A stretch of DNA of 64,000 nt from Methanocella sp. (GCA_050261115.1 JBLNCY010000010.1:32001-96000), one strand, 5' to 3'; shown: positions 19,791 to 49,763, numbered from the stretch's first letter. The notes: a model not told the origin generated them from the sequence alone. Made by a program: numbers and translations.

Positions 19791-19853
19791 TTTCAAGCGC
19801 TGGTTCAACCCGAGGTTGACTCTATATAAGAGGGGGTCTCAGTGAGAGCAACA
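19791..19853 (+). repeat. Dispersed intergenic repeat, copy 1
   Basis: TTTCAAG..TGGTTCAACC-CGA-GGTTGACTCTATATAAGAGGGGGTCTC...GAGAGCAACA. Confidence 0.75.
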
Positions 19854-19863
19854 TAAGAAAGCC

Positions 19864-21648
19864 TTACAGATAAGCTTCAGTCACATACCTGCGCATCATA
19901 CGGTGACTGTTAAAGTAGTATGCAACTTTGCCAATCGAGTTCTTCATCAGCCTGATCCATTCGTCTTGGTGGTCATAGAATGTTGGCATGATAACGTACT
20001 CGAGTTTATTGTAGAGGTCGTCAAGCTCCTTACGCAACACCGCTGCGTCGTCAAGAACCTCTTTTGGTTGTGGTCCGATTGCCCAGCCAGTGATGCCCTC
20101 AATCCAGCCTTCAATCCACCAGCCATCCAACACACTAAAGTTGATCACACCGTTATGCGCTGCTTTCATACCGCTGGTGCCCGAAGCCTCCAAAGGACGC
20201 ATGGGGTTATTGAGCCACACATCAACGCCGCCCACCATCTTCGAAGCGATGTCCATGTCATAGTTCTCAAGGTACACAACTTCGATGTCGCCTTTGAGTT
20301 GACGTCCGTAGCTGTAGATTTGCTCGATTAGATGTTTGCCGCCTACATCTCGGGGGTGCGCTTTGCCTGCGAATATGGCTTGGAGTTTAGCTTTTTGGCC
20401 GATGCTACGTAAGCGCTCAAGATTTGAGAACAGCAGGGTAGCGCGTTTGTATTCGGTTGTGCGTCTAGCAAACCCTAGCGTGAAAACATTGGGGTCAAGG
20501 TTGGCGTTAGCGGCTTTGTTGGCGTAGTCGATGAGGGTTTGTTTCTGTTGCTGGTGCGCTTGCCAGATTTCTCCGTCGGGGATCAGGTCTACTTTTGCGA
20601 GGATCTCTGGCTCTATGGCCCAGCCCGGCAGGTACTTATCGAATAGTTTCCGGAAGGCCATGCCAGTCCAAGTGTATGAGTGGACACCATTTGTGACGGC
20701 GTGAATTTGGTAACCGGTGAACATTTTAGCCGAGATTTCTTGATGCCGCTTTGCCACTCCGTTAACATAGTTGCTTAAATTAAGCGCCAACCGCGTCATG
20801 TTAAGGACATCTTGGCCGCCATATTTTTTCAGAACATCCACATCTACGGTGTCAAGCGTCTCCCTTACCAGGTCATAGTGGAACTTATCATGCCCCGCCT
20901 CAACGGGAGTGTGGGTGGTAAAGACGCAGAGTTCCCGGACTTTCTCTACGCAGTAATCATACTTCCGTAGTAACTCAACTGCCAAAAAGCTTGAGTGCCC
21001 CTCGTTCATGTGGTATTTACGTACACTAAACCCTAACGCATCAAGCATTCGCACGCCGCCAAATCCCAGAACGGCTTCCTGTTTTATGCGGTAGCGTTCG
21101 TCTCCGCCGTAGAGGTAATAGGAGATTTCTCGGTCCTGAGGCGCATTGACCTCAAAATCAGTGTCTAAAAAGAGAACGGGAACGATTCCGCCGCCTATGC
21201 TTTGGTACTTGTAGAGCCAAGCTTTAACCTTCACTGTCCGGCCTTCAATGTGCACATTAACCTCGTTAGGCAGAAGCGTCAGTTGATTCTCAGGCGACCA
21301 TAGGTTCTGTAGCTCAATCTGGTGACCGTTTTGGTCGAGTTTCTGCTTAAAATAGTTCCGTCTGCTAATTAAGGTGACTGCAACAAGCGGAAGCTTGAGA
21401 TCGGCGCTTGAGCGTATAGCATCCCCAGCTAACGTGCCTAATCCCCCCGCGTATGTTGGGATTGTGTGGGTTAATCCTACCTCCATCGAGAAATACGCGA
21501 TTTTATGCCCTTTCAGTAAACCCTGTAACTCACTCAACCTATATTCCCTCAAAGCCCTGTAGGATTTGTCCATCGCATAGTTTGTGGCTAAGCGTCTTTC
21601 CCTTTGGATTGGGCTGGGTTTAATATCTACCTTTGGGTGACTATCCAA
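19864..21648 (-). CDS. glgP: Alpha-glucan (glycogen/maltodextrin) phosphorylase
   Basis: YFSMEVG, YAGGLG, HMNEGH, FTTHTP, VTNGVH, EYKR, EASGTSGMK (PLP Lys). Confidence 0.95.
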   Translation of the reverse strand: MDSHPKVDIKPSPIQRERRLATNYAMDKSYRALREYRLSELQGLLKGHKIAYFSMEVGLTHTIPTYAGGLGTLAGDAIRSSADLKLPLVAVTLISRRNYFKQKLDQNGHQIELQNLWSPENQLTLLPNEVNVHIEGRTVKVKAWLYKYQSIGGGIVPVLFLDTDFEVNAPQDREISYYLYGGDERYRIKQEAVLGFGGVRMLDALGFSVRKYHMNEGHSSFLAVELLRKYDYCVEKVRELCVFTTHTPVEAGHDKFHYDLVRETLDTVDVDVLKKYGGQDVLNMTRLALNLSNYVNGVAKRHQEISAKMFTGYQIHAVTNGVHSYTWTGMAFRKLFDKYLPGWAIEPEILAKVDLIPDGEIWQAHQQQKQTLIDYANKAANANLDPNVFTLGFARRTTEYKRATLLFSNLERLRSIGQKAKLQAIFAGKAHPRDVGGKHLIEQIYSYGRQLKGDIEVVYLENYDMDIASKMVGGVDVWLNNPMRPLEASGTSGMKAAHNGVINFSVLDGWWIEGWIEGITGWAIGPQPKEVLDDAAVLRKELDDLYNKLEYVIMPTFYDHQDEWIRLMKNSIGKVAYYFNSHRMMRRYVTEAYL

Positions 21649-21655
21649 AAATAGA

Positions 21656-22798
21656 TTAAGTTAGCGGAGGACGTTCACGTAGCGTGACTTCTACATCAAT
21701 CACTTCGCCGCCTCGCACAACCGTAACTCTTATGACATCACCTGGCAACGTATTTGCTTCAAGGTAGCTTGCGAGGTCATCGTTACTCTTTATTGTTTGA
21801 CCATTTAGGGCGATGATTATGTCGCCGACTTGGATTCTGCCTGCACTTGGGCCCCCACGGACCACTGAAGCGATTTTCCAACCATACGTGACGCTATCGC
21901 CGTTTGCCATAGCTATATCATAGTTCATGTCTCTTCCAGTAACCCCCAGGTAGGAGTGTCCCCGGTATGTACCTGTGGTAATTAAGGAACCGATTTCTCG
22001 CAGAATGGTGCTTGAGGGTATGGCAAAGCCTAGACCCTGTGAATTGCTGACTATGGCGGTGGTTATGCCGACGACGTTGCCCATGGCGTTTAAGAGTAAG
22101 CCGCCAGAGTTGCCGGGGTTAATGGCTGTGTTGGTTTGGATGACGTTTGCAATCGAGTACCCGCCGGTGGTTTCCTCAGTTATGCTCCTTCCGACTGCGC
22201 TAACGATGCCTGTTGTCATGGAACCGACAAGGCCATAGGGGTTTCCGATTGCTATTACCGTTTCACCTACCCGCAGGTTTGAAGAGCTAACAATGGTTAT
22301 GGGTACAAATTCTGAGTCCGGCGCTTGGGGAACGGAAAGAACCGCTAGGTCCGCGTATGGATCGGCGCCTAGTATTGTGGCGTAGTAGCCTCTGCCGTTT
22401 GCAAAGGTGACACTTAGGCTTGTGGTGTCGTCGACTACGTGGTTGTTGGTTATTATGACGTTTTGTCCTTGATAGTTATAGACAAACCCTGATCCCTGTA
22501 CGCTTCTCCCATCGTTGCTTTGACCTTTTATCAAGACAACTGAATCTTTCACCATAGCATACAAATCCGCTAATGATGTTCCGTTCTCTGGGATTATGGT
22601 GATGTTTTGGTAGGTGGCATTACTTGTGCCCTCTAAAACTGAAACAGCGGTTTTTAACTCAGATACTTGGGTACCCAGAGTGGTTATCTGCCGATAGTTA
22701 ACATAGAACATCAGCAATCCGCCAACCATTAATCCCGTGACAAACAGCAAAATCAGGATGCTAGCGGATGTCTTCTTAGCAGATTCAGACGCATACAT
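21656..22798 (-). CDS. HtrA/DegP-like membrane-anchored serine protease with PDZ domain
   Basis: TNNHVV, DLAVL, NPGNSGG triad; C-terminal PDZ (GDIIIALNG). Confidence 0.93.
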   Translation of the reverse strand: MYASESAKKTSASILILLFVTGLMVGGLLMFYVNYRQITTLGTQVSELKTAVSVLEGTSNATYQNITIIPENGTSLADLYAMVKDSVVLIKGQSNDGRSVQGSGFVYNYQGQNVIITNNHVVDDTTSLSVTFANGRGYYATILGADPYADLAVLSVPQAPDSEFVPITIVSSSNLRVGETVIAIGNPYGLVGSMTTGIVSAVGRSITEETTGGYSIANVIQTNTAINPGNSGGLLLNAMGNVVGITTAIVSNSQGLGFAIPSSTILREIGSLITTGTYRGHSYLGVTGRDMNYDIAMANGDSVTYGWKIASVVRGGPSAGRIQVGDIIIALNGQTIKSNDDLASYLEANTLPGDVIRVTVVRGGEVIDVEVTLRERPPLT

Positions 22799-22848
22799 AG
22801 AGTCATGCCTTAAAAGAGGATAAAAGAAAAAGAAAATAAAAGTTCCTA

Positions 22849-23850
22849 TTATCGGCGATCGATAAGGTCTAACGCTTCAGGACCAGTTCCAATCAAGGTA
22901 ACCGGTACACCGGTTCGTTTTTCAACTTCTTTTATGAAGTCTTTAGCGTCCGTCGTCAAATCATCGAACTTGCGGGCACCCTTTATGCTGGGGAACAACA
23001 CATCAAGCTTTGTAAGCGCCGCTTGTGTTGCACCGTTAATTTTTGCGGTTTTCTTTGCTAAGTCAAAGTCAAAGGGGGCAGAGCGACGGTCGCGACCTGT
23101 GCCTGCGGCGGTCTCAAACCAGCCGCGCTTCTGAGCTTCTTCTTTGCTGATTTCACCAGGCAAGGGGCCTCCGCCTACACGGGTAATGAATGACTTGTAA
23201 ACAATTATGACGTCGTCAACTCTTGTGGGGCCTACACCTGCTTCGGAGGCAATGGCTGATGCGCCTGTGTCGCGGCCGGTAACATAGGGGTAGCCGCCGC
23301 TTAGGAATAGTGAAAGCATGAAGCCTTGGGTGCCTTCCAATATGACGCTTTTTCCCTCATCTAGGCCGTCGTTGACTTCTTGGATGCCGTCACAGAGAAA
23401 CGCTTTAAGTTCCGGCATGTCTTTTGCGAGTTTAGCGGTGCGCCTGACGCGTTCCTCGAGTGCGGGTCCAACGCCCCATCCTGTGGTGCCGATGCCTTTG
23501 TTGACTGCTGAGGCTTTATCTTGGTCACTGTGCTTCTGCTCAATAATGGAAGCGTTTTGGTCTATGCCGACACGTTTAGGGTCGACTTTGGTGAGTTCCA
23601 TTTCTTTTTGGAATTGACCGATGTGAACGTTTGAACCTGCCGCGACCAGTAGCCGGGTCTTTGGGTTTATGAAACCAGCGGGCACCATGTGAAGAGCATA
23701 TTTTTGGCCTTCATACCAAACGGTGTGGGCTGCGTTTACTGATCCAGTTCTTACACAAAAATCAAGGTTATCTTTGAGGGCTAGATATGAGATTATTTTT
23801 CCTTTGCCTTCGTCTCCCCAGAAGGCGCCGACGATTACTGAACAAGGCAT
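22849..23850 (-). CDS. purA: Adenylosuccinate synthetase (short archaeal form)
   Basis: WGDEGKGK, GTTGWGVGP, EGTQG, YPYVT, TKLDVL. Confidence 0.96.
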   Translation of the reverse strand: MPCSVIVGAFWGDEGKGKIISYLALKDNLDFCVRTGSVNAAHTVWYEGQKYALHMVPAGFINPKTRLLVAAGSNVHIGQFQKEMELTKVDPKRVGIDQNASIIEQKHSDQDKASAVNKGIGTTGWGVGPALEERVRRTAKLAKDMPELKAFLCDGIQEVNDGLDEGKSVILEGTQGFMLSLFLSGGYPYVTGRDTGASAIASEAGVGPTRVDDVIIVYKSFITRVGGGPLPGEISKEEAQKRGWFETAAGTGRDRRSAPFDFDLAKKTAKINGATQAALTKLDVLFPSIKGARKFDDLTTDAKDFIKEVEKRTGVPVTLIGTGPEALDLIDRR

Positions 23851-23874
23851 GACTATTACCCTCTACAAGTCATC

Positions 23875-24087
23875 TTAGGGCTTATTTAAAGTTGTAGATT
23901 TAGAAAGGCTGGTCTTTGTGCTGGTATCTTGACTTATCAGTTCAGCTAATCGGTAGGTTATGAAGCCTGAGAAGCTTCGTATGCCCCGTTTTATGGTGTA
24001 CTCCTCTTTTACCCTTAACCATTCATCAAAGAAATATTGGTAAACTTCAGTCTTTACAGTAATTGTTTTGAACCCTTTTTTTGGCGT
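23875..24087 (-). CDS. Small ribbon-helix-helix-like protein with probable ACG start (not in ORF track)
   Basis: (M)PKKGFKTITVKTEVYQYFFDEWLRVKEEYTIKRGIRSFSGFITYRLAELI...; AGAGGGG SD and TATA upstream; no in-frame ATG/GTG/TTG. Confidence 0.65.
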   Translation of the reverse strand, partial: TPKKGFKTITVKTEVYQYFFDEWLRVKEEYTIKRGIRSFSGFITYRLAELISQDTSTKTSLSKSTTLNKP

Positions 24088-24255
24088 GCAATGTTCCCCT
24101 CTATGGATAGTAACCGAGGGTACGTTTATTTAAGGTTTAACAGGGTTTGCTGTACTTTACGGGAATCTCGATTTACCGTTAATTATATATTCCAATAAGT
24201 ACCGTACTGTACGGAAGAAGATTAAAGCAAACAACGCCCCCTTGGAGTCGAGCAA

Positions 24256-24423
24256 ATGCCGATTCGCATAATTCAAAGTAACGACCGCGCCGCGGAAGTA
24301 CAATACGTATGCGATCACTGCGGCAAACCCATCAAAACTAGTGTAATCTCTAAAAAAGAAGCAGAACAACAAAAAAACCAGCCAGTGTCCTGCTGGCAAT
24401 GCAAACAAGCAAAAACAAAATAA
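24256..24423 (+). CDS. 55-aa zinc-finger microprotein (not in ORF track)
   Basis: MPIRIIQSNDRAAEVQYVCDHCGKPIK...PVSCWQCKQAKTK*; CxxC...CxxC; GGAG SD. Confidence 0.7.
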   Translation: MPIRIIQSNDRAAEVQYVCDHCGKPIKTSVISKKEAEQQKNQPVSCWQCKQAKTK

Positions 24424-24427
24424 TAAC

Positions 24428-24805
24428 TCAACGACGCTGGGCAGCTTCGGTATCGATTACTTCAAGAAGTCGAACCACCCGCTTACCCTTGACAATTTTT
24501 TCCTGCTCAGTGATGGTGTTAGCTGCTTCACAAATTGAATCTATCACCACACCCTTATCTTCATCAACGATAACCGGATAAACACGGCAGCCAGAGGGTC
24601 GAGAAAGGTACACACTACACCTGTTGCTGGCTCGGTCGTAGAAGACGCAGTAGCCTTCGCGGTTTCTCAGAAACGCGTAGCCATACTTGTCATAGCGCAC
24701 GAACTGCTTTTTACGGTATCCCCTGTCCTTTAAGCGCTTGATGTCCTTTTTTGAGAGGAGCATCTCCGTTTCTGTACAGCATACACCGCAATGTGAGCAA
24801 TCCAT
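24428..24805 (-). CDS. YkgJ family cysteine-cluster protein
   Basis: CSHCGVCC, CVFYD, CSVYLSRPSGCRVYP. Confidence 0.9.
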   Translation of the reverse strand: MDCSHCGVCCTETEMLLSKKDIKRLKDRGYRKKQFVRYDKYGYAFLRNREGYCVFYDRASNRCSVYLSRPSGCRVYPVIVDEDKGVVIDSICEAANTITEQEKIVKGKRVVRLLEVIDTEAAQRR

Positions 24806-24856
24806 AGTCGCTGATAATCAGTGGCGCTATTTCTACATTTATATCCGATCACGCGG

Positions 24857-25093
24857 TTAGACCATGATTTTCATGATGTTAGCGTTTAGCATTTCAGCGT
24901 ATGCTATGCTCTTTAGCGGTATCCGGATTGCCTTTCGGTTGCCTAGGCTGTACTCGATTTGGTTGTTGTTTTTGCCCGCACATTTGCATAGCTTTGTTAG
25001 TTGAACGTTTACGATTACTGCGCCGTCCTTTAGGTGAAGGTTTACTTTTTTTCCGATGTAGGATTTTGCGCTGTTGGCGCTGAAGCTCTCCAT
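24857..25093 (-). CDS. Small hypothetical protein (Sm/LSm-like beta fold possible)
   Basis: YIGKKVNLHLKDGAVIVNV; ATG at 25093 immediately after the upstream stop. Confidence 0.65.
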   Translation of the reverse strand: MESFSANSAKSYIGKKVNLHLKDGAVIVNVQLTKLCKCAGKNNNQIEYSLGNRKAIRIPLKSIAYAEMLNANIMKIMV

Positions 25094-25094
25094 T

Positions 25095-26358: not shown

Positions 26359-26432
26359 CTCGACGAGCGATTGCCTGAACTCATAGAGAGATGTGTGTGT
26401 ATATAAAAATAGATTGTTCCTAAGCATAGTGC

Positions 26433-30020: not shown

Positions 30021-30272
30021 TCGACTGCTTTATACACCTGATATTTTTTAAATCTAGCGGATTCCAGCCATTAGCGCCCAAAGATACCAAGCATAGTATT
30101 CTTGAAGCACGTAAATTGCCTGTTAAACAAAATAAAGCAACGCTACGTCTTTATTACTACAACATTTCCATGCACTGAAGCGCTCTTTCAACTATTCATG
30201 ACGTTATTCTCATAGCACTATAAGCCACCAAAATAGCGGGAAAGAGTACTTTTTCGAGGGTTTATGGGTGCC

Positions 30273-30340
30273 TTTAAGATAGGGTTTAACCCGTGGTTGA
30301 CTCTATATGTAATGGAGGGGTGTCTATAGCATAGCATCAG
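30273..30340 (+). repeat. Dispersed intergenic repeat, copy 2
   Basis: TTTAAG..AGGGTTTAACC-CGT-GGTTGACTCTATATGTAATGGAGGGGTGTCT..AGCATAGCATCAG. Confidence 0.75.
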
Positions 30341-30451
30341 GTCTGCTCAATCACGCCATCAAATAGGCAAACAAACCCCCTACACATAACAACTAAAAAC
30401 GGGACAAGGCATCTCTTGCCATGACTTACACTGCAACCTCATCCGTTATTC

Positions 30452-30497: not shown

Positions 30498-30575
30498 GGG
30501 CCGGTAGCTCAGCACGGCTGGAGCGTTCGACTGATAATCGAAAGGTCGGCAGTTCAAATCCGCCTCGGCCCACCA
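30498..30575 (+). tRNA. tRNA-Ile(GAU), intronless, CCA encoded
   Basis: Acceptor GGGCCGG/TCGGCCC, anticodon arm TTCGA-CTGATAA-TCGAA, T loop TTCAAAT, ACCA end. Confidence 0.96.
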
Positions 30576-32620: not shown

Positions 32621-33058
32621 ATGAAACCCCTCCGCGTATCCGACGATGCCCACCAAAAACTCACCGCTATGCTAGGTGAAATAACCGCCCAAACCATGAG
32701 AATCCAAACCTACACCGACGCCATCGAAAACCTCCTCTCCACAAGTGTTAACCTCCCCCCCGAACTCCTCAACGAAACCCAAACCTTTATCGAAAACAAC
32801 CGCAATCTCGGCTACACCAGTCGCGAAGAATTCATCCGAGACGCCATCCGCACGCAACTCAAATACAAAAAATACCAATACACCTGCCTCGAAATCCCCA
32901 CCGAAGACTACGAACGAATGCAGCAAGCACTCCAAGACTTAGGCTCCGACTACTTGAGCGTAGAGGACTTTATCAACCACCAAATACGCACCCTACTCAC
33001 AAGATACCAAGAAATGCTCAAAGAGAACGAAACATACGAACGTAAAAAATCCCGATAA
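32621..33058 (+). CDS. Multi-ribbon-helix-helix DNA-binding protein
   Basis: SVNLPPELL...GYTSREEFIRDAIR and LEIPTEDY...YLSVEDFINHQIR RHH-like repeats. Confidence 0.75.
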   Translation: MKPLRVSDDAHQKLTAMLGEITAQTMRIQTYTDAIENLLSTSVNLPPELLNETQTFIENNRNLGYTSREEFIRDAIRTQLKYKKYQYTCLEIPTEDYERMQQALQDLGSDYLSVEDFINHQIRTLLTRYQEMLKENETYERKKSR

Positions 33059-33075: not shown

Positions 33076-33149
33076 GGGCGCTGTTGTTTTGCCGGGAGAC
33101 CCGTCGTTTATATATAGAGTCAACCATGGGTTCAAACCATCCTTGAAAT
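33076..33149 (-). repeat. Dispersed intergenic repeat, copy 3
   Basis: Minus strand ATTTCAAGGATGGTTTGAACC-CAT-GGTTGACTCTATATATAAACGACGGGTCTCCCGGCAAAACAACAGCGCCC. Confidence 0.75.
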
Positions 33150-33411
33150 CAGCCATGCTGGCTATATCGCTTGGGTGTGCTTCTATCTTGTATGTCTAAA
33201 TGCAGGTTGTGCTGTTCGTTTTTTGGTGGTGTGGTTTTTGCTGTTTTGGTAACTGGGGGTTTGTTCTGTTCTTAGTCAAGGTTGATTTACTGGTTATAAT
33301 TAAATGCAATATTGCTATTCAATACATGGAACGTGCGGTTTCTTTAGCTAAGATTTTATATACAGACTAGCGCTTACTCCCAAATGCCACATTATCCATG
33401 GGCTGATTCGA

Positions 33412-36087
33412 ATGAATAACAAAAAACCCATTGTATTTACCCTCATCTGCCTGTTAACCTTCACAGGTACCCTAAGTCTGCTCAACCCCACTCAAGCAGA
33501 AACCTGGACAGATATACCACTTCCATACACCATTACCCAGAGCGGCAACTACCGCATCTCTGGCGCCTTCAACGTAACCGGAACAGCATTATCCATAAAC
33601 GCAAGTAACGTAGTCGTCGACGGCCAGAACCACTTAATTTCTCTCAATCAAAGTGAAGGCGACACCGCAATCGCCATAGCGAAAAACAGCAAAAACGTGC
33701 TGCTGAAAAACATTAACGCAACAGGCGCAGACTACGGCGTCTACTCCAGAGAAGGCAACTTTACCCTTACCGATTCACTTTTCACCAATAACACCTCAAC
33801 CGGCGTCTTCGCCTTTAACGCGACAGGTTTCACAGTTCAAAACTCAAGAACAAGCGAGAGCGCCTACGGCATAGTCGCCATCGACTGCAGCAATTTCCTC
33901 ATAAACGACTGTCACATAAAAAATAACCTAAAAGGCATAGTCGCTGTTCTAAGTAGCGGTTTAAGTATTCAAGGAACCCACTTTAACGGCAACGGTGAAG
34001 CTGTATCGGTTCAGAATTGCACAAACGTAAAAATCGACAGCTCTATGCTAGTTGAAAATGAAGCTGCAATAAACGCCACCTATACCACACTTAGCGCTTT
34101 TAACGTAAACGCTTCAAATAACATTGTCTTCGCATTTTACCTCTCAAACAGTACCTTCAACGCAGCTAATTGTACATGTACTAACAATGCAGCAGGCTTG
34201 TATGCTATGTTCAGCAACTACACCATAACTAACTCGTCATTTTCAAATAACCTTTTAGCAGGAGCATACTCTGGCTACAGCAACGGAACACTACTTCATT
34301 GCGCAGTAGAGAACAATACGTACGGCGAATTTTCGGTCATGAATAATGCCACAATTATAGATGACTGCAGTGTTAAAAACAACGAATATGGTCTAGTAAT
34401 TCTCGCCAGCCAAACTATGATAGTTAAAGACTCTTTGTTCTTCAACAACACCCTCGCTGGATTATGGGATCAACAGAGCAGCAGCTCCATACTATCCCGC
34501 AATAACTTTACTCAAAACGGCTTCTCCAACGAAAGCCAGGAATACGGCGGAGGTGCATTATTTCAGGTAGAAAGCAACAGTACAGTCACAGATAATACAT
34601 TCAAGAACAACTATGAGGCCCTACTCATAGGCGGATTCGAAGATGAAACAATAAACACAATAGTTTACAATTACAACAAGTTTGAGAACAACAGCTACAC
34701 CTTCGACTTCAACTATAATCTCCCAAGCAACAGTTCAAACCTCGAGATCCACTTCTACAACAACTACGTCAACGACACAGCCTACATTAGCCCACTAAGC
34801 TTCATAAACGAAGGAATGACTGTACCATCTGCGAACGTTCTTTTCCTCAACACTACACTCCAAGCTGGCAAAAGAGTCACGCTTGACGGCGCACGCATGA
34901 TCGGCGGCAACTACTGGGCACACCCAAACGGCACAGGCTTTAGCCAAACCGCAGCTGACACCAATACCGACGGCTTTGCTGATGATGCCTTTGACCTCTT
35001 TGGCGACGGCACAGTCTATGATTACCTACCCTACACCTCAAGCTACGTCGAAAAAGTAGCAGCTTTAGAAATTACACCCCAGACCCCCATAGTAAAGGCG
35101 GGTGAACCAGTGACCTTTGGTGCCACTGCATATGACGAGTACGGTAACGCATGGAACGCCACCGCCTCATACACCATCGAAGGCAATGAATTCAACGGCA
35201 CCATAACCGCCTACAGCGTAGGCGCATACTATGTGGAAGCAACCTACGGCGGTAAAAGCGCAAACACCACCCTGACCATAGTTCCCAACGAGGTAGACCG
35301 CTATGTCATCTTAACGCCAAATAGCGCCAAAGCCAACATGTCCTTCACCATCAGAATCCTAGCAGTAGACGCCTACAACAACATAGTGACCGACTATTCT
35401 GGTAAGGTAACCTTGAGCCTAAACGCCACCAACATCAGCCCCCGAGAAACTGGCGACTTCACCTACGGCTCTTGGATGGGAACCGTAACCATAACCGACA
35501 CAGGAACCTTCACAATAACCGCCAAAGACAGCAACGGAAAAACAGGCACTAGCAACGCTCTCACCATTGAGCAAGAAACCGCCATACCCACTACTCCACC
35601 GCCCCCTCCCTCAACTGATAGCGTTCAGGCAACCAAAGAAGACGGCACAAAAGTAACCTTATCCCTCGATGGTAACATAACAAGCTCACAGATAACCAAC
35701 ATGACAATCACAACCAACCAAACTGATCGCACAACAATGATATCTTTCACCATTACGGGTCCTGCGGGTGGCAATGGTTTCTGTAATATCACAATCGCTA
35801 AAAGCTCAATAGCCTTTGGCTCAATTCCCATAGTGCTAATTGATGGGCAGACAGTAGCAAACCAAGGCTTCACTGAAGACAATCAAAATTTCTATGTATG
35901 GTTCACTACAAGCTTTAGTACTCATCGAGTAGAAATCCAATTTAACGAGAGGACACAACCGACTAGTCCTCCAACTGAAAATGACTCAAATTGGTGGGTT
36001 ACTCCTGTTGCCCTCATAGTGGGTTTAGCAATTGTTTCGGTTGCGCTGGTGTTCGTCTTTAGCAGAAGAACAAGGCTGCACCGTTAA
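33412..36087 (+). CDS. Cell-surface protein: signal peptide, right-handed beta-helix (NosD-like) repeats, Ig-like domains, C-terminal TM anchor
   Basis: Asn-rich NN..G repeats, GGNYW..P.G.GFS, Pro/Thr linker, TM followed by RRTRLHR. Confidence 0.85.
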   Translation: MNNKKPIVFTLICLLTFTGTLSLLNPTQAETWTDIPLPYTITQSGNYRISGAFNVTGTALSINASNVVVDGQNHLISLNQSEGDTAIAIAKNSKNVLLKNINATGADYGVYSREGNFTLTDSLFTNNTSTGVFAFNATGFTVQNSRTSESAYGIVAIDCSNFLINDCHIKNNLKGIVAVLSSGLSIQGTHFNGNGEAVSVQNCTNVKIDSSMLVENEAAINATYTTLSAFNVNASNNIVFAFYLSNSTFNAANCTCTNNAAGLYAMFSNYTITNSSFSNNLLAGAYSGYSNGTLLHCAVENNTYGEFSVMNNATIIDDCSVKNNEYGLVILASQTMIVKDSLFFNNTLAGLWDQQSSSSILSRNNFTQNGFSNESQEYGGGALFQVESNSTVTDNTFKNNYEALLIGGFEDETINTIVYNYNKFENNSYTFDFNYNLPSNSSNLEIHFYNNYVNDTAYISPLSFINEGMTVPSANVLFLNTTLQAGKRVTLDGARMIGGNYWAHPNGTGFSQTAADTNTDGFADDAFDLFGDGTVYDYLPYTSSYVEKVAALEITPQTPIVKAGEPVTFGATAYDEYGNAWNATASYTIEGNEFNGTITAYSVGAYYVEATYGGKSANTTLTIVPNEVDRYVILTPNSAKANMSFTIRILAVDAYNNIVTDYSGKVTLSLNATNISPRETGDFTYGSWMGTVTITDTGTFTITAKDSNGKTGTSNALTIEQETAIPTTPPPPPSTDSVQATKEDGTKVTLSLDGNITSSQITNMTITTNQTDRTTMISFTITGPAGGNGFCNITIAKSSIAFGSIPIVLIDGQTVANQGFTEDNQNFYVWFTTSFSTHRVEIQFNERTQPTSPPTENDSNWWVTPVALIVGLAIVSVALVFVFSRRTRLHR

Positions 36088-42911: not shown

Positions 42912-43526
42912 TTGTGGTTTTTTACGGTTGACGCATTAGCAGACCTTTTTCGAGCATCCATTGCGCTTTTCATCATCGTTGACCCCTTCGGTAATATACC
43001 GATCTTCATAGGTTTAACAGAAAAGGTTGAGCCGGCTCAACGACGGAAAGTCTACAACATCGCCATACTCGTGGGGTTTGTGTTGCTTCTCTCTTTTGCA
43101 TTTTTGGGGCAGGAGATCCTGCAGATTTTTGGCTTATCGATTTATGCTTTTCAAATCGCAGGCGGCCTAATGTTACTAATCGTTGCGATTCGGATTTTAG
43201 TGACTGGAAATATGCATGAAAACGCGGAGTCACCTGAAAGTTTGGGCGCTGTTCCGATTGCGATGCCCCTGCTGGTAGGCCCAGGCGCCATCACCACAAC
43301 CATTTTCAACCTCCAAGCGTATGGCACAATAATTTCCATCCTATCCGTGTTGATTGTGCTGTCGATTACTTGGGTTATTTTGCGGTTTATTAATGTGGTT
43401 TATCGGTTTTTGGGTAAGACAGGGTCGCTTGTTATTGCCAGGGTTATGGCGCTGTTGATTGCTGCCATTGCCGTTCAATATATTTTATCGGGCGCCACCT
43501 ACTTTATCGACACAGGGCAAATATAA
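42912..43526 (+). CDS. MarC family membrane protein
   Basis: IVDPFGNIPIF, FQIAGG, VPIAMPLLVGPGAIT, RVMALLIAAIAVQ. Confidence 0.93.
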   Translation: MWFFTVDALADLFRASIALFIIVDPFGNIPIFIGLTEKVEPAQRRKVYNIAILVGFVLLLSFAFLGQEILQIFGLSIYAFQIAGGLMLLIVAIRILVTGNMHENAESPESLGAVPIAMPLLVGPGAITTTIFNLQAYGTIISILSVLIVLSITWVILRFINVVYRFLGKTGSLVIARVMALLIAAIAVQYILSGATYFIDTGQI

Positions 43527-43578
43527 CGCCAAACAAGCGGCAAAAGAGCGCCACCCATAAACAAGCACATTTCTATCT

Positions 43579-43735
43579 GGACGCATTTGCGCAGCCCGAC
43601 ATCTAACCCACCCCTGCAGCCGTACAGCCTCCATCAACAAAGAAACTGCAACCACCCAGACCTGTCCTGTTATTATTTGCAGGGGTTGAGTCTATATATA
43701 AGGGAGGGGGTAGGTCGGCAGAGCAACAGAGACCC
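43579..43735 (+). repeat. Dispersed intergenic repeat, copy 4 (long form)
   Basis: Core GGTTGAGTCTATATATAAGGGAGGGGGTAGGTCGGCAGAGCAACAG; colinear with 49613-49763 over about 150 bp. Confidence 0.75.
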
Positions 43736-43748
43736 ATTTTGATTTACG

Positions 43749-44303
43749 CTAGACGGGGAAGTGCATTTCACCCACAGAATAATGCACAATTTCGCCCCGC
43801 CGATTAGTAACAGCCAAAATAAGCTCCTTCTTCTGAGTCTGACACTTCGAAAGCGCATCAGCCAAATCATCAATCGGCAACGGCTTACCTTCCTGCGTAA
43901 CCAAAATCAAGTAAGGCGCAGTGTCTTTGCCGTAAGAGCCACGCTCATAAATACGGAAATCAATACCTGCACCGAAGCCCTCACGAACCACATAGCCCCG
44001 GCTGCGCAGGTCACGGTAGACAAGGTAATTAACCCACGCGTTCTCATTCTTTGCCTCATAGCAATGCAGTAGTTGCTGGAAGTCTACTGTTGCGTTGTCA
44101 GCTGTTTTTGTTTCCAGCATGCCTTTGTCTTGGAGGTAGAGTGCTTCAAAGAAGGCTAAGGTGAAGGTTTTGCCTTCGAGGGTGCCGTATCCGCGGCTGC
44201 TGAGTTGGTCGATGCTGCTCTGCTCTGAGATGATGACGCCTTTGTCGGTTAAGGTGCCGCTTGTTTTGAATTCGACGGGTGCCTTCTTTTGGGTTTCACT
44301 CAT
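43749..44303 (-). CDS. tRNA-splicing endonuclease, structural (beta) subunit
   Basis: FEALYL, YLVYRDLRSRGYVVREGFG, DFRIY; lacks the catalytic His (KDTAPY). Confidence 0.85.
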   Translation of the reverse strand: MSETQKKAPVEFKTSGTLTDKGVIISEQSSIDQLSSRGYGTLEGKTFTLAFFEALYLQDKGMLETKTADNATVDFQQLLHCYEAKNENAWVNYLVYRDLRSRGYVVREGFGAGIDFRIYERGSYGKDTAPYLILVTQEGKPLPIDDLADALSKCQTQKKELILAVTNRRGEIVHYSVGEMHFPV

Positions 44304-44583
44304 TAGGATCAGCTTTACTAGCTTTGATTTGAGGTTTTTGGGTTCTTTAACGTTGCGATGGGTTTAGGGGTTTAATCTATAATGTGACTGAATGTTAGGA
44401 TTGTTTCTAATTCGATACCCACATAGCCTCTATCAGCGCCTGAAAAAACATGAACCAGACAGAGCACTCTGTTTTTACGAAACAACTCTTGCAATCTTGA
44501 GTCATTAATATGCATCCGGCTAAACCTGCACACAACATTTTAATGCATAAGTCAGCCTACAAGGATAAGACAGGTAATCACAA

Positions 44584-46356
44584 TTGAGCAATGAAGCTAA
44601 ATGCAGCAAACCGCAATGCGACAAATTCGTCGCAATCAACGAACTTGCTAAACGCCGAGGCTTCTTCTGGCCTTCCTTTGAAATATACGGCGGAAGCGGC
44701 GGTTTTGTAACTTACGGCCCACTGGGCGCACGTCTAAAACAAAACATCGAATCACGCCTCAGAGACTTGATAGTTAAGAAACTCGGTATTTATGAGATGG
44801 AATCCTCAGTTATCACGCCCGGCAAAGTGTTTGAGGCATCAGGACACGTGGCACATTTCAAGGAGCCTATGGTGGAATGCCAGAATTGCCACACACGCTT
44901 CCGAGCAGACCACCTACTCGAAGACAAGGGCATTAGCCCTGCTGAAGCAGAAAAAATGAGCTTAGAAGAAATCAAAGCCGAAATAGAACGTCACAACATC
45001 ATCTGCCCAGACTGCAAAGGCAAATTCGGAGAACCCACACGATACCTAACCATGTTCGAAACTACCATAGGCCCCTACAGCGGCGCAGTGGGCTACGGCA
45101 GACCCGAAGCGGCACAGAACATCTTTGTCGAATTCAACCGACTCTACAACGTAGCCAGAGAACGCCTACCCTTTGGCTGCATAAACATCGGCAAGGCACT
45201 CAGAAACGAAATCAGCCCACGCCAAGGTCTAATCCGCCTACGAGAATTCACCATCGCCGACTTAGAGTTCTTCTTTGACCCTGAAGAGCCATCATGCGAC
45301 CGCATAGCTGAAGTCGAAAACGAAACCCTCCCCATTCTGCTCTGTGAAACCCGAGAAAAAGACTGCGAAACCGTAACCACCTTTACCGTCCGAGAAGCCC
45401 TCGAAAAAGGCATCATCAAAAATCAGTGGCAAGCATTCTTTATGGCTCAAGCCAAACGTCTACTAACTGACCTTGGCGTACCCGAAACCAAACAGCGATT
45501 CTTAGAAAAGTTCACTTGGGAAAAAGCCCACTATAGCACCCAGAGCTTCGACCAAGAAGTCCTTGTCGACCGCTGGGGCTGGATGGAAGTATCAGGTCAC
45601 GCTTACCGTAGCGACTACGACTTATCCTGCCACATGAAAGCCAGCGGCGTAGACATGACCGTTTACAAAGAATTTCCCAACCCAGTAGAAACCGAGGAAC
45701 TCACAGTTAAGCCGCTTATGGCAAAACTCGGCCCAGTCTACAAGGGCGATGCAGCCAAAGTAGCTGAGGCCTTAGCAAAAATCCCCGCAGAGCAAGTGGC
45801 GGATGCCATGGCTAAAGACGGCAGCATCGTAGTAGATGGTTACCAAGTCTTCAAAGAGCAAGTCGAAATAAGTAAGCAGAAAACCGCCATACGAGGCAAA
45901 CGATTCGTTCCCCATGTGGTGGAGCCAAGTTTTGGCTGCGACCGCCTATTCTACATAGCCTTAGAATACGCATACAGCGTTAAAGACGACCGCGTAGTGC
46001 TTAGCTTCCCAAGAAACATTGCCCCCATTCAAGTCGGAATCTACCCACTGATGAGCAAAGACAGCATGGACACTAAAGCTAAAGAAATCCAAAAACAGCT
46101 CGCCTGCGAGGGCTTCATGACTGACTATGACGAAACCGGCAGCATCGGCAGACGCTATGCCAGAGCAGACGAAGCAGGCATACAACTCGGTATAACCGTC
46201 GACTATGACACTCTAGAGAAGGGCACCGTTACTATACGTGACCGCGACAGTTGGAAGCAAGTCCTCGTCACCATCGCTGACCTACCCAAACTGCTACACC
46301 AATACTTCGAGGGTAAAATAAACTTCACAGACTTAGGGAGCCAAATCGAAACTTAA
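44584..46356 (+). CDS. glyS: Glycine--tRNA ligase (alpha2, archaeal/eukaryotic type)
   Basis: RRGFFWPSFEIYGG, RPEAAQ, RNEISPRQGLIRLREF, PHVVEPSFGCDR, SIGRRYARADE. Confidence 0.97.
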   Translation: MSNEAKCSKPQCDKFVAINELAKRRGFFWPSFEIYGGSGGFVTYGPLGARLKQNIESRLRDLIVKKLGIYEMESSVITPGKVFEASGHVAHFKEPMVECQNCHTRFRADHLLEDKGISPAEAEKMSLEEIKAEIERHNIICPDCKGKFGEPTRYLTMFETTIGPYSGAVGYGRPEAAQNIFVEFNRLYNVARERLPFGCINIGKALRNEISPRQGLIRLREFTIADLEFFFDPEEPSCDRIAEVENETLPILLCETREKDCETVTTFTVREALEKGIIKNQWQAFFMAQAKRLLTDLGVPETKQRFLEKFTWEKAHYSTQSFDQEVLVDRWGWMEVSGHAYRSDYDLSCHMKASGVDMTVYKEFPNPVETEELTVKPLMAKLGPVYKGDAAKVAEALAKIPAEQVADAMAKDGSIVVDGYQVFKEQVEISKQKTAIRGKRFVPHVVEPSFGCDRLFYIALEYAYSVKDDRVVLSFPRNIAPIQVGIYPLMSKDSMDTKAKEIQKQLACEGFMTDYDETGSIGRRYARADEAGIQLGITVDYDTLEKGTVTIRDRDSWKQVLVTIADLPKLLHQYFEGKINFTDLGSQIET

Positions 46357-46429
46357 GTAGCTACCTTTTTTAATACTCAGGTGTTAACTTAATGATCAAT
46401 CCACGGATGATTATAGCGGGGGAAAAAGA

Positions 46430-47089
46430 ATAGTCCTTCCATCAGAAACAGAAGAGCGCGTGAAGAGGCGCGCACTCAACGCATGCCAAGAAAACCTACG
46501 GAAAGTAGTCGACGTAACCAGAAAAATCCCTCAACTCGTCGAGTACTTCGCAAGCGGAGACAAAGAGAACGTTCGCCGACTGTTCAGCGAAATTAAAACA
46601 GGCGAAGAAGAAGTCACCAAGGCAAGACGCATGGTCAGCCAAGAACTCGCAGAAATCGGCGCCATACTCTACGCAAGAGAAGACTTTCTACGATTCACTA
46701 ACCTCTCAAGCGAAATCGCAGATTTCAGCGAGGGCATCGCATATTATCTGGTTGAAATCATGGAACACAACTGGGTAGTCCCACCTGAAATCAAAAAAGA
46801 CCTTTTAAAACTCAGCTTAGCCGTACTTGACTCAACCCTCAAACTGCGAGAAACAATGATGGTCCTAAACTATGGGTCACAAAAAACCCTTGAACGAGCA
46901 AAGGACGTCGAGATTGCTGAGCGTATAGTAGACGAGCAGTATCGCGCTTTGACTATCAAGGTTTTGAGTTCTAAACTTGACACCCCTGTTATGCTGCTAC
47001 TAAGAGACGTGTTGCAGTTGCTTGAGAACTCAGCGGATAAAGCTGAAGATGCAGCAGACGCGGCACGTATGGTTTCAATGATAATGTAG
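46430..47089 (+). CDS. DUF47/PhoU-like helical protein, probable ATA start at 46430
   Basis: REDFLRF, EIAERIVDEQYR, LENSADKAEDAAD; GCGGGGG SD 7 nt before ATA. Confidence 0.8.
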   Translation: MVLPSETEERVKRRALNACQENLRKVVDVTRKIPQLVEYFASGDKENVRRLFSEIKTGEEEVTKARRMVSQELAEIGAILYAREDFLRFTNLSSEIADFSEGIAYYLVEIMEHNWVVPPEIKKDLLKLSLAVLDSTLKLRETMMVLNYGSQKTLERAKDVEIAERIVDEQYRALTIKVLSSKLDTPVMLLLRDVLQLLENSADKAEDAADAARMVSMIM

Positions 47090-47101
47090 CAGGCGAGCCA
47101 G

Positions 47102-47656
47102 ATGCCACAGATAAGAGTGGAACTCATCGAAAACTTTCTAGTCGTATGGAACCCCACTGAGGGCTCCCAACTCTACAAAACCGCCTATTATGGCAAACCC
47201 ATCGGGATCCCCAAACCAAAAATTCCCGAATTCGACGTACCGCTCATTTTAGACTTAATGGAAGGCCTCTACTTAGCGGAAACAGGAAAAATCGACATAT
47301 ACGAGGACCCTGACGAAGAAAAGGTCAGCTTAGAAAAACTTCGAGACAAGGCTAAAGAGCTCTATGATGAATTCGAGGAAAAATATGCAGTTTATCAAGA
47401 CATGCGGAACAGCGGCTTAATTGTAACCCCCGGTATAAAGTTTGGCTGTGACTTCGCAGTTTACAAGTATGGCCCCGGCGTGGAACATGCACCCTACATG
47501 GTTACCGTAAAAAGGGCTGGTTCAACGATTTCTGCTACGGAGATTGTAAAAAACGGGCGGCTTGCAACCACTGTGCGAAAACGTTTCATTATTGCTGTTC
47601 CCGATTTAGAGACACAGCAAATAAAATATTTGATGTTTAAGTGGTTTAAGGCTTAG
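47102..47656 (+). CDS. endA: tRNA-splicing endonuclease, catalytic (alpha) subunit
   Basis: PGIKFGCDFAVY (Tyr), EHAPY (His), ATTVRK (Lys). Confidence 0.93.
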   Translation: MPQIRVELIENFLVVWNPTEGSQLYKTAYYGKPIGIPKPKIPEFDVPLILDLMEGLYLAETGKIDIYEDPDEEKVSLEKLRDKAKELYDEFEEKYAVYQDMRNSGLIVTPGIKFGCDFAVYKYGPGVEHAPYMVTVKRAGSTISATEIVKNGRLATTVRKRFIIAVPDLETQQIKYLMFKWFKA

Positions 47657-47658
47657 GC

Positions 47659-48954
47659 TTAATTGGCGATTATGGTTTGGTTTTGGAATTCGCCTCTGAC
47701 CTGTTGATGGGGGTAAACTTTTGTTGCAACCAAATTACAGCCAGCATCTAAAGCTACATCGTCTGCTACTACGCTTACCGAAGTGATTTTTGTGGGCTTG
47801 CTGCAGCTAGAGTTAACCGCTACGTGCCTGCCGATTATGCTGTCATAGATTTCTGCGTTATCACCTATTATTACTCGGTCTAGGATCGCCGAGTTAACAA
47901 TGGTCACGTTTTTACCAATGCGAGTAAAGTTGTCTATGCATGAGTTTACTATGCGTGCGCCATCTTCGATTTCACAGTGGCGACCGATCAGTACTGCACC
48001 TTCGAATGTGATTTTCTTTTGCTTGATTTTCTGGATGATGTCTTGGCGTCGTTTCTCGGAGTCGTCGCTTTCGCCTTGTAAGAATATCAATGCATCGTCG
48101 GATAATTTGCCGCCAAAGTCTTTGAGTGTTGAGAAGCCGCCGTGCAGCAGGTTTTTCATGGCTTCTAGATAATTCTTCGGGGTGCCGACATCAAACCAGT
48201 TGCCTTTAAGCGTGTAGCCATAGACTGGACGACCCGTCGAAATCACATAGGGTATGAAGTCATAGCCGAAGTCTAGGCGGTTTTTCTCTTTGATGATTTG
48301 CTGTACGCCTTTCTCTTTGAAGATCTTACGGATCTCAGGAGACATAAGGTACAGCCCGGTATTGGCTAGGTTGCTTGGGGCGTCCTTGGGCTCGGGTTTT
48401 TCGACGAATTTTCTGATTCTACCACAGCTATCGATGTCAGCTATACCTAAACCTTCAACGCAATCGACTTCACGAAGAACTATCGTTAGACAAGCGTCAT
48501 TCTTTCTATGGAAATCGAATAGGTTCTTGACGTTTATGTCAAAGATGTTATCGCCCTGAACCGCGAAAATTGGGTTGTTTAGGTCATAATACTCCATGTT
48601 TATGCGTGCAGAATCCGCGCTGCCCAAGTCGGGAACGTTCGGTTGATACTTTATGTGGATCTGCGGGCGGATATCATAGTTCGCCGAGAATCCGGCACCT
48701 GACTCAAAATAATCGTATAGATCACGGTAATTTGTGTAGCCTTTTACTCCGAAGATGAAATTTCTTATTCCTTGGCTTGCGAGCGATAAGAGTGAGAACT
48801 CTACTAGAGGTCTGTTAAGTAGGCGTATGCAGGCTTTGCTGGTTTCAGCCGTGAGAGGCAGGAGCCTTGTTGCTTTTCCGCCTACTGGAATGATTACTCT
48901 GATTTTGTCTGGTGAATAGTTATCGCCTACTAGAGGTGCGTATCTATCGCTCAA
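47659..48954 (-). CDS. NDP-sugar pyrophosphorylase with C-terminal left-handed beta-helix (GlgC/mannose-1-P guanylyltransferase-like)
   Basis: GGKATRLLPLT..SK, QGDN, FVEKP, NTGLY, WFDVGT, hexapeptide repeats. Confidence 0.88.
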   Translation of the reverse strand: MSDRYAPLVGDNYSPDKIRVIIPVGGKATRLLPLTAETSKACIRLLNRPLVEFSLLSLASQGIRNFIFGVKGYTNYRDLYDYFESGAGFSANYDIRPQIHIKYQPNVPDLGSADSARINMEYYDLNNPIFAVQGDNIFDINVKNLFDFHRKNDACLTIVLREVDCVEGLGIADIDSCGRIRKFVEKPEPKDAPSNLANTGLYLMSPEIRKIFKEKGVQQIIKEKNRLDFGYDFIPYVISTGRPVYGYTLKGNWFDVGTPKNYLEAMKNLLHGGFSTLKDFGGKLSDDALIFLQGESDDSEKRRQDIIQKIKQKKITFEGAVLIGRHCEIEDGARIVNSCIDNFTRIGKNVTIVNSAILDRVIIGDNAEIYDSIIGRHVAVNSSCSKPTKITSVSVVADDVALDAGCNLVATKVYPHQQVRGEFQNQTIIAN

Positions 48955-49027
48955 AACCCATCAACCTTGACTTTAAAGAGAGCAATTAATCCTTTTAATG
49001 TTTGTCATATGATCGGTAACTGGGCTG

Positions 49028-49450
49028 CTACATTGCCTTCTTAAAAGTGGGTAACCTAACCAAATGCACAGTAACACCCGCAGCCACACACAACAAAATG
49101 ACCTGGACCAATAGTAATTCGTTAAAAATGAAAAGTGCCGAAAACGCAATCGAGCCCCAAAGAACAGTGAGGGCTAATATCTTGGTTTTCATTGGTATAC
49201 CTTTGCCGGCCTGATAGTTTTTGATGTATTCTCCAAACCAGCGGTTGTTGATGAGCCACTTATGCATCCGCTCCGAACTACGCATATAGCACGCCGCTGC
49301 CAATAGGAGAAAAGGCGTTGTGGGCAGAACAGGTAAAAAGATGCCAATGGCGCCTAAACATAAGCATATGGTGCCGGCCGCTATGAGTAAGGCTCTGACA
49401 ACTCTTTGCTTTTTTACCTTTGAAACTGGAACGTCAGGTTGTGCTGTCAT
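49028..49450 (-). CDS. YbaN/DUF454 family membrane protein
   Basis: LGAIGIFLPVLPTTPFLLLAAACYMRSS; start at ATG 49450 rather than 49570. Confidence 0.9.
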   Translation of the reverse strand: MTAQPDVPVSKVKKQRVVRALLIAAGTICLCLGAIGIFLPVLPTTPFLLLAAACYMRSSERMHKWLINNRWFGEYIKNYQAGKGIPMKTKILALTVLWGSIAFSALFIFNELLLVQVILLCVAAGVTVHLVRLPTFKKAM

Positions 49451-49612
49451 CCATTTTCCCTTTCTCCATCGTTTTTCAATAATAAAAAGGCTATGCAAAT
49501 AGGCATGGTTCTGTGTGTGGGTGTTAGTTGACCTGTTTTGGATTGGTAAGCTTGTTGGTTGTTCATGCAAATAATTTATCGGGAATTCTAAGAAGACGTC
49601 GCTTTGTTTTGA

Positions 49613-49763
49613 GGGTCTGCTGCTTTGCTAACCTATCCTCTCCCTATATATAGATTCAACAACCGCCGACAATAACCAAATACACCTGGGCGTTTGCAGG
49701 TTCATGGGGTTGAGGGCTGTATGAATGTGGGATGGGTTGATTGTTGGCTGCACAACCGCATCC
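49613..49763 (-). repeat. Dispersed intergenic repeat, copy 5 (long form)
   Basis: Minus-strand core GTTGAATCTATATATAGGGAGAGGATAGGTTAGCAAAGCAGCAGACCC; colinear with copy 4. Confidence 0.75.

Follow-up and report, generated by a model that had tools for sequence, protein, structure and literature searches.

A dispersed intergenic repeat family with a candidate promoter core in Bathyarchaeia

The window considered here is a 64,000-nucleotide (nt) stretch of assembly GCA_050261115.1 (JBLNCY010000010.1:32001-96000), in which five copies of a short dispersed repeat lie among housekeeping genes, namely those for a phosphorylase, DapB, tRNA-Ile, the tRNA-intron endonuclease (endA), a class II aminoacyl-tRNA synthetase (presumably ProRS), RNase HII (rnhB) and a DUF454 protein. 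These copies belong to a family that is real, large and, as far as limited searches show, undescribed. Its host range is some Bathy-6-type Bathyarchaeia, and its conserved core resembles an archaeal promoter in layout. The coordinates of the copies and of the genes beside them are collected in Table 1.

The repeat in the window and in the host genome

A first-pass annotation of this DNA had listed five copies by position, orientation and motif blocks (GTTGA.TCTATAT, a purine tract and a GCA.AGCA.CAG tail), and all of these were found again in the sequence. The word GTTGANTCTATAT matches five times in the window with at most one mismatch, against 0.19 matches expected, and five or more matches were obtained in 0 of 100 shuffles. 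A sequence-only covariance model, built from 25 copies and run on the window with its filters off, recovers the same five at 47-60 bits, the next-best match reaching at most 4.5 bits. Since nothing beyond the five copies exceeds that score, the weak sixth candidate of the annotation (59071-59103, minus strand) is not a member of the family; a TATA-like stretch followed by a G-rich GAGGTGGGG is present there, and no model match was obtained at E<=10. Copies 4 and 5 reach about 110 nt farther upstream than had been annotated.

The tails of copies 1, 3 and 4 end close to the stop codons of converging genes, as had been noticed at first sight, the distances being 10 nt for the glycogen-phosphorylase-like gene, 23 nt for the RHH-like gene and 20 nt for endA (about 14-20 nt when taken from the 3' edge of copy 4). 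The placement of copy 4 between convergent genes was likewise borne out, these being MarC and endA. Copy 5 is sense to the DUF454 gene and has its 5' side toward RNase HII, and the tRNA-Ile gene beside copy 2 retains a TATA-like box of its own (TCTTATAAAC) about 42 nt upstream. Elsewhere in the window, at 34537-34607, RNA-library contigs from two runs omit 69 nt inside a gene for an 891-amino-acid (aa) beta-helix (NosD-like) protein, which may be a between-strain length variant of a repeat unit.

Table 1. Copies of the repeat in the window, with the genes beside them; positions are counted from the first nucleotide of the window, and matches to GTTGANTCTATAT allow at most one mismatch.
Feature	Span	Strand	GTTGANTCTATAT match	Covariance-model span	Description
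Copy 1	19782..19858	+	19815-19827	19782-19858	A-type: TTCAAG-N5-GGTTCAACC-N3-GGTTGAC upstream module, then core
Copy 2	30262..30343	+	30296-30308	30262-30343	A-type; 158 nt upstream of tRNA-Ile, sense
Copy 3	33076..33157	-	33112-33124	33076-33157	A-type; antisense toward 3' end of RHH-like gene
Copy 4	43569..43735	+	43685-43697	43671-43735	B-type: 114-nt CA-rich upstream module 43569-43682, then core
Copy 5	49611..49765	-	49648-49660	49611-49676	B-type: upstream module 49765..49661, then core
Copy 4 core (example)	43691..43735	+			TCTATATATAA TATA box, GGGAGGGGGT G-tract, AGGTCG variable spacer, GCAGAGCAACAGA predicted initiator/first transcribed bases
Glycogen-phosphorylase-like gene	19864-21648	-			Converges on copy 1
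tRNA-Ile	30498-30575				Downstream of copy 2
RHH-like gene	32621-33058	+			145 aa; converges on copy 3
MarC	42912-43526	+			Beside copy 4
endA	43749-44303	-			tRNA-intron endonuclease; converges on copy 4
DUF454 gene	49028-49570	-			Co-oriented with copy 5
RNase HII	49869-50534	+			Toward 5' side of copy 5

The host genome (G000; 2.15 Mb in 66 contigs, 94.85% complete, with the window on contig C10) contains 35 exact matches to GTTGANTCTATAT and none to the reversed pattern. When searched by nhmmer with a 77-nt core profile, it yields 98 copies at a threshold of E<=1e-5 and 115 when this is relaxed to E<=1e-3, and the reversed genome yields no match even at E<=10. The core common to the copies reads GGTTGAnTC-TATATATAA-GGGAGGGGG-(7 variable nt)-GCAGAGCAACAGA, and the consensus of the 98 copies is TTCAAGC-N5-GGTTsAACCcGT-GGTTGAcTC-TATATATAA-GGGAGGGGGT-(~7 variable nt)-GCAGAGCAACAGA. 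Information per column in this alignment peaks over GGTTGA, over the TATA stretch TCTATATATAA, which is nearly invariant among copies, over the G-tract and over GCAGAGCAAC, and it is near zero in the spacer. Conservation falls abruptly past CAACAGA, where the similarity between copies ends within a few bases and leaves a sharp 3' edge; the downstream flanks are unalike, with one shared 31-nt pair among the 98 copies.

Two kinds of module are found upstream of the core. The A-type module has a palindrome, GGTTSAACC (S being C or G), with a GGTTGAC half-site about one helical turn onward and the word TTCAAG one turn before it, the latter forming the 5' edge; this palindromic site lies one helical turn upstream of the TATA box. 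The B-type module is a fixed, CA-rich sequence of 114 nt that occurs 36 times in the host genome, 34 times overlapped by a same-strand core at a near-constant offset and twice adjoining weak core matches (E 0.011 and 0.0047), and none of the 36 is listed downstream of a core. According to the criteria used here, the 98 cores comprise 46 A-type, 30 B-type and 22 short or other copies. Near-identical copies are absent (13 pairs align over at least 60 nt, with a median identity of 87% and a maximum of 92%), and thus there has been no recent burst. At one locus, C22:17446-17519, two A-type upstream modules face each other across one TATATATA, in the order GGTTGAACCCGTGGTTGACTC-TATATATA-GCGTCAACCTTGGGTTCAAC, with neither G-tract nor tail; from its sequence this looks like a symmetric variant, possibly a bidirectional one.

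Placement, distribution and history of the copies

All counts of gene context depend on a crude gene caller based on codon usage; it called 1811 genes, with 77% of the sequence coding. The intergenic position described for the window copies extends to the whole genome, where 97 of the 98 copies do not overlap a called gene (p=1.7e-61). The next gene downstream is opposed to the copy in 51 cases and co-oriented in 41, and it is missing in 6. The 91 classifiable copies are divided among convergent (22), divergent (22), tandem co-oriented (19) and tandem anti-oriented (28) positions, a split that nearly follows the make-up of the usable intergenic space, of which 20% is convergent, 27% divergent and 53% tandem, and the tandem regions show no orientation bias (p=0.24). 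Where a gene converges on the copy, the 3' edge is at most 30 nt from its stop codon in 16 of 50 cases, and where the next gene is co-oriented, its start is mostly 80-280 nt from the element. A TATA-like box of their own is present in 16 of 29 such co-oriented genes versus 369 of 838 genes genome-wide, which is a normal rate. Given this random orientation and the retention of TATA boxes by co-oriented genes, the copies are not working promoters of their neighbours, and the first-pass annotation was right to deny them the role of ordinary sense promoters. Radical-SAM, PQQ-repeat, P-type ATPase and histidine-kinase paralogues are the families met repeatedly next to copies; all are large and ordinary, and none of mobile type was found among them.

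A class of tRNA or stable-RNA promoters was also considered and rejected, with a copy upstream of only 2 of the 41 tRNAs, at 158 and 193 nt; in the case of the signal recognition particle (SRP) RNA and the RNase P RNA, no sense copy is present among the profile matches listed. The leader of the 16S rRNA of the host, gene-free over 1.1 kb, contains one full and one partial copy (CTTTATATAAGGGAGGGGAGGTACC), both sense, which lie about 1150 and 750 nt ahead of the start of the 16S rRNA, in the region G000:C18:67689-69887; the 16S gene itself is split over contigs C18 and C24. No copy was found within 1.5 kb in five relatives, including the copy-rich genome G113, and the leader copies are thus restricted to the host among 6 genomes.

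Among relatives, the exact word GTTGANTCTATAT occurs 0-2 times per genome in 40 genomes. A model search, extending the family to other Bathyarchaeia, detects it in 25 of 100 other genomes of the genus, with at least 42 matches in G113, 30 in G064, 24 in G090, 18 in G075, 17 in G102 and 15 in G105; a dedicated search of G113 gives 119. Among 120 other genomes across the order, multiple copies are confined to the genus, apart from one genome of a second genus of the same family (18 matches), and four other genomes have single matches. Element-rich and element-free species are interleaved when ranked by the identity of a single gene, which is not a tree. Between species, it is mainly the part from TATA to CAACAGA that is shared, and the upstream module differs, that of G113 being AATTGC..GTTGAACCTGCCGTTGAATC. 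In G113 (loci L033, L035, L040 and L056), a second, shorter unit of TATA and G-tract (TATTTATTCTTTAAATAAGGGAGGGGTAGGTACC) follows within about 15 nt after several copies. Other G113 copies have a common downstream word, TATAGGGGATAGGG, so that the subfamilies there reach beyond the edge seen in the host genome.

A patchy distribution of this kind, with 119 matches in one relative and a single multi-copy genome outside the genus, would suit a selfish non-autonomous mobile element of an unrecognised type, and so would the random orientation, a placement proportional to intergenic space and the existence of two subfamilies with one common end. In that case a recombinase or transposase, now lost or encoded at some other place, would recognise the core as an end, and the TATA box would be incidental, with any transcription a side effect. 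This explanation is regarded here as rather unlikely, since several marks of mobility are missing. When the B-type consensus was aligned locally, its first 60 nt against the reverse complement of its last 75 nt, the best score was 6 (10 columns, 2 mismatches), so that terminal inverted repeats are at chance level, and no target-site duplication was seen by eye in the flanks of 23 aligned A-type copies, the 5' edge of which is fuzzy. In the host genome, TnpB (PF07282) gave no match over the cut-off, Y1 (PF01797) and IS110 (PF02371) gave no match at all, and Y2 (PF04986) gave none either, a weak negative as its control also matched nowhere; the single DDE_Tnp_1 gene (C55:1256-1705) is not adjacent to any copy. 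The autonomous partner could be missing, given the completeness and the contig number of the assembly. Moreover, the lack of near-identical copies speaks against recent mobility, and conservation in blocks around an unconstrained spacer is more the layout of a binding site than the outcome of uniform decay.

The tests for structure were likewise negative. RNAalifold predicted 0 pairs on 25 copies and 0 pairs on either strand of 31 B-type copies, for which the mean folding z-scores were 0.04 and 0.02. The Rfam matches in the window at gathering score were two tRNAs alone, 20 copies with 200-nt flanks gave 0 Rfam matches at E<=1, and a C/D-box pattern was found in 0 of 98 copies. With no inverted repeats, hairpin, consensus structure, Rfam match or mobile-type gene, two of the identities offered by the first-pass annotation, an element akin to repetitive extragenic palindromic (REP) sequences or miniature inverted-repeat transposable elements (MITEs) and a family of structured non-coding RNAs, are unsupported, and the linked gene of HUH or IS110 type that it suggested seeking was not found in the host genome. 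Its failure to recognise the repeat as a described element agrees with the searches as far as they reach, and its overall interpretation is partly supported. A viral origin was rejected: of six viral contigs with the 19-mer, five represent one unrelated sequence, a hairpin followed by a T-run, and one is family-like. The family-like sequence (AGTTGAATCTATATATAAGGGAGGGGTCTAGG...) lies on a 30.6-kb contig (L146) in a viral collection. Phage and plasmid collections gave no matches to the element, and an exact 25-mer scan of metagenome contigs for strain polymorphism at the endA site found nothing.

Signals of both age and gain are present. When G113 is compared with the host genome, 49 flanks of 30 G113 copies have a host orthologue and 20 of these are within 2.5 kb of a host copy; 15 of the 20 agree in side and orientation (25% expected, p=3.8e-6), and in 6 of these 15 the element points into the 3' end of a converging gene. 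Copy 2 has a counterpart upstream of tRNA-Ile, in the same orientation, in both G105 and G113 (C19:3268-3310, the tRNA region being C19:3490-3631), and copy 3 has one in G075, at the same place and in the same orientation; in the corresponding region of G113 a copy is found about 260 nt farther away and in the opposite orientation. At the positions shared by the host and G113, the core is 75% identical and both flanking sides are 47-55% identical, which is the random level, so that selection or homogenisation, and not recent descent alone, maintains the core. Copies at corresponding positions resemble each other no more than any other pair does (77%). As for gain, 6 relatives that carry the element lack a counterpart of copy 1 next to the orthologous gene, and no copy lies within 2.5 kb of endA at any of 80 related loci from Bathyarchaeia, including Bathy-6 isolates and Candidatus Bathycorpusculum. 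The lack of counterparts of copy 1 and the restriction of the rRNA-leader copies to the host count in favour of a mobile element.

The shared positions bear on another explanation, in which the copies would be about one hundred genes for small non-coding or antisense RNAs under one regulated promoter, with the A-type site as operator, kept by the host since their transcripts control the neighbouring genes. Conservation of position, side and orientation at 15 of 20 flanks, including the six copies directed into converging 3' ends, agrees with such a regulon, as do the presence of copy 2 upstream of tRNA-Ile in three species, the counterpart of copy 3 in G075 and the palindromic site one helical turn upstream of the TATA box. 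We consider it doubtful, as the downstream sequence is unconserved even at shared positions, no terminator signal or structure accompanies the copies, the family was not found in 75 of the 100 congeners and many positions are lineage-specific.

Copies are also associated with genome rearrangement. In G064, G102, L066 and L067, endA is directly followed by RNase HII, the gap being 8-65 nt between matched pieces in G064 and G102, about 67 nt in L066 and about 190 nt in L067, and in several other relatives the two genes are within 1.2-3.3 kb of each other. In the host genome they are 5.5 kb apart and mutually inverted; the stop codon of endA lies directly against the 3' edge of copy 4, RNase HII has its start toward the 5' side of copy 5, and the two copies are themselves mutually inverted. 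This layout is the one predicted by an exchange between inverted copies, and the separation by copies of genes that are adjacent elsewhere is also counted in favour of a mobile element. A single inversion between copies 4 and 5 was rejected: the MarC-DUF454 and ProRS-endA adjacencies that it predicts were not seen in the relatives examined, and more than one rearrangement event is therefore needed. Furthermore, each of three G113 copies (L051, L054 and L058) has two flanks that match the corresponding flanks of two different host copies, and thus copies coincide with synteny breakpoints.

The core as a putative archaeal promoter

The reading preferred here, to which we assign a probability of roughly 0.5, is that this lineage-restricted dispersed repeat carries, in its conserved core, an active outward-firing archaeal promoter. 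TBP and TFB would bind the TATA box and its flanks, with GGTTGA as an upstream contact resembling the B-recognition element (BRE) and the G-tract as the downstream contact, and RNA polymerase would initiate about 25 nt downstream, at the C-A step in GCAACAGA. Transcription would then continue outward, past the sharp 3' edge and into the adjoining DNA. At about half of the copies, this read-in would enter the 3' end of a converging gene and generate antisense RNA, and at the others it would enter an A+C-rich spacer upstream of a co-oriented gene with its own promoter, the output being mostly non-coding or antisense RNA. The A-type palindrome and the GGTTGAC half-site may together form an operator, bound by a dimeric regulator that would control many copies simultaneously. 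Spread would have followed a duplicative route, with copies coinciding with the breakpoints of genome rearrangements.

Archaeal transcription starts about 26 nt past the centre of the TATA box, preferably at a pyrimidine-purine step. The predicted start, the C-A step of GCAACAGA, precedes by 5-6 nt the end of the similarity between copies, so that the conserved part ends just past the start site, as is expected of a promoter cassette; the end of a transposon has no reason to be there. Among the words found upstream of host genes, enrichment is strongest (4-8 fold) for TATA-like hexamers such as TATATA, ATATAA and TATAAG, with those inside TCTATATATAAG among them, and it peaks at -55 to -40 from start codons; at two ordinary genes with a TATA box, RNA contigs begin 11-20 nt after the predicted start. 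In the case of copy 5, a 143-nt RNA-library fragment (49471-49613) with adapter at both ends extends into the co-oriented DUF454 gene, and its upper end is 5-10 nt past the predicted start, as given by one contig set in which contigs have no strand. The 60 nt past the 3' edge are A+C-rich on the element strand in 42 of 51 copies with intergenic flanks (p=3.4e-6), independently of the next gene (23 of 29 when co-oriented, 19 of 22 when opposed), and the same skew marks the sense strands of the host genes, the third codon positions of which have A.28, C.36, G.18 and T.19. The 40 nt after stop codons in the host genome are T-rich (.30). Transcription of the copies is thus weakly indicated by one RNA fragment and a sense-like base skew.

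The strand-specific skew and the position of the edge also bear on the idea of an architectural DNA site, one for chromosome organisation, segregation or insulation that would be bound by a lineage-specific protein and not transcribed. Orientation independence, the strictly intergenic placement at roughly one copy per 20 kb, the strongly conserved blocks, the palindrome in one module and the presence of copies at rearrangement breakpoints would all fit such a site. We nevertheless hold it to be very unlikely: the core is asymmetric and built on a canonical TATA box, its edge lies at the distance expected of a start site, a downstream skew tied to one strand is not expected of a pure binding site, and no candidate protein was identified. 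The repeated protein-binding site proposed in the first-pass annotation survives as an idea, with basal transcription factors as the proteins most plainly implied. The same annotation had discounted a promoter on account of orientation, yet the core is laid out like a complete archaeal one, and its conservation stops where transcripts would be expected to start.

Several observations weigh against an active promoter. The RNA data are assembled contigs that carry no strand information. Copies 2 and 3 are almost uncovered in four sets of RNA-library contigs, which by itself speaks neither way. A contig over copy 4 (43708-44040) has its first base 15 nt upstream of where transcription is predicted to begin, and is for that reason better read as endA mRNA. 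The stretch between the TATA box and the predicted start is G+C-rich, which in an archaeal promoter should hinder DNA melting, and GGTTGAC, which is part of the conserved upstream GGTTGAnTC, is unlike the purine-rich consensus BRE. Downstream, there is no excess of T-run terminators, T-runs being if anything rarer than in controls, and because the sequence there is unconserved between species, no defined RNA product is evident. Orientation relative to genes is random, and use by neighbouring genes has left no sign, as a TATA box of their own is as frequent as usual among co-oriented genes. In G113 the A+C skew is less marked, being found in 18 of 30 copies in an unstratified count. Nor does an extra TFB paralogue track the family, a candidate rejected on TFIIB-repeat matches of 4-10 in element-rich genomes versus 2-14 in others.

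Two further observations concern the copies and their surroundings. No small conserved open reading frame (ORF) was found downstream of the copies, the first ORFs starting anywhere from +2 to +277 without a pattern. One RNA-library contig matches copy 4 from window position 43686, where the core starts, has 48 unrelated letters before that point and shows a G-tract one base shorter; it is probably derived from another copy or strain, and some copy is therefore covered from upstream in the RNA library.

A more far-reaching extension of the promoter reading, and an improbable one in our judgement, is a host-maintained network of about 100 near-identical core promoters, many of them under one palindromic operator, that would launch antisense and read-in transcripts at gene ends. 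The G+C-rich stretch between TATA box and start would here act as a 'discriminator' of the bacterial type, allowing a joint response to growth state, supercoiling or a single regulator.

Significance and comparison with known systems

Promoter-carrying dispersed repeats are already known from bacteria and from one archaeal virus. Full-text literature searches returned no description of a chromosomal archaeal family of promoter-bearing repeats, of repeats in Bathyarchaeia or of archaeal MITE promoters. Should the copies be active, much antisense and read-in transcription would come from them, and they would be a natural experiment on what an archaeal core promoter needs, only the TATA box, the G-tract and the start region being constant. 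They would also supply genetic tools with a strong-promoter candidate in a lineage of which hardly any member is in culture. If the host-maintained network existed, it would add a repeat-borne, orientation-free layer of transcriptional control to an uncultured archaeal lineage. Whether active or not, the copies mark synteny breakpoints and are useful for reading genome rearrangement in this group.

In their available excerpts, accounts of REP/REPIN-RAYT systems describe long-persisting sequence populations (PMC8049555). The present family shares with these and with palindromic elements derived from IS200/605, as they are partly described, an intergenic position that is often just past stop codons; unlike them, it has neither the defining hairpin nor a linked Y1 (HUH) transposase among what was found here.

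The Correia repeat-enclosed elements of Neisseria are depicted, in the excerpts available, as short and intergenic, with about a hundred copies, outward promoters that yield non-coding RNAs and a link to rearrangement (PMC5039591, PMC9778887), and a further source names them, in its accessible part, as mobile elements that bear promoters (PMC3575422). As far as those accounts go, the likeness covers a length of about 70-190 bp, about one hundred intergenic copies per genome, outward promoter sequences and the association with rearrangement. Correia elements are bounded by 26-bp terminal inverted repeats, show a TA target duplication and bear promoter halves of the bacterial sigma-70 type, whereas the element described here is archaeal, lacks inverted repeats and visible duplication and has an archaeal TATA-type core.

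The putative mobile promoters of Nijveen, Matus-Garcia and van Passel are, in the excerpts of that work, near-alike promoters beside unrelated genes within or between genomes, some of them with no known mobile element (PMC3575422). The concept, so far as these excerpts convey it, is the same. Those promoters are defined there as upstream regions of genes, whereas about half of the present copies face a converging 3' end; in addition, the co-oriented genes here keep their own TATA box, each genome has far more copies and the host is archaeal.

Intergenic repeats of the halovirus HF2, as reported in the accessible part of the source, are 29 and 58 bp long, have AT-rich motifs and showed promoter activity in 9 of 9 tested; their sequence and position are conserved among related genomes, and counter-transcripts are present (PMC8707807). 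The resemblance is one of description, no likeness in sequence being expected, and is to short intergenic archaeal repeats with an AT-rich motif. HF2 repeats belong, in that account, to the genome of a haloarchaeal virus, whereas the present family is chromosomal, has about 100 copies and contains a G-rich block between the TATA box and the start. By analogy, the family would in its working be most like the bacterial promoter-bearing dispersed repeats and the HF2 repeats, but with a core of the archaeal TATA type.

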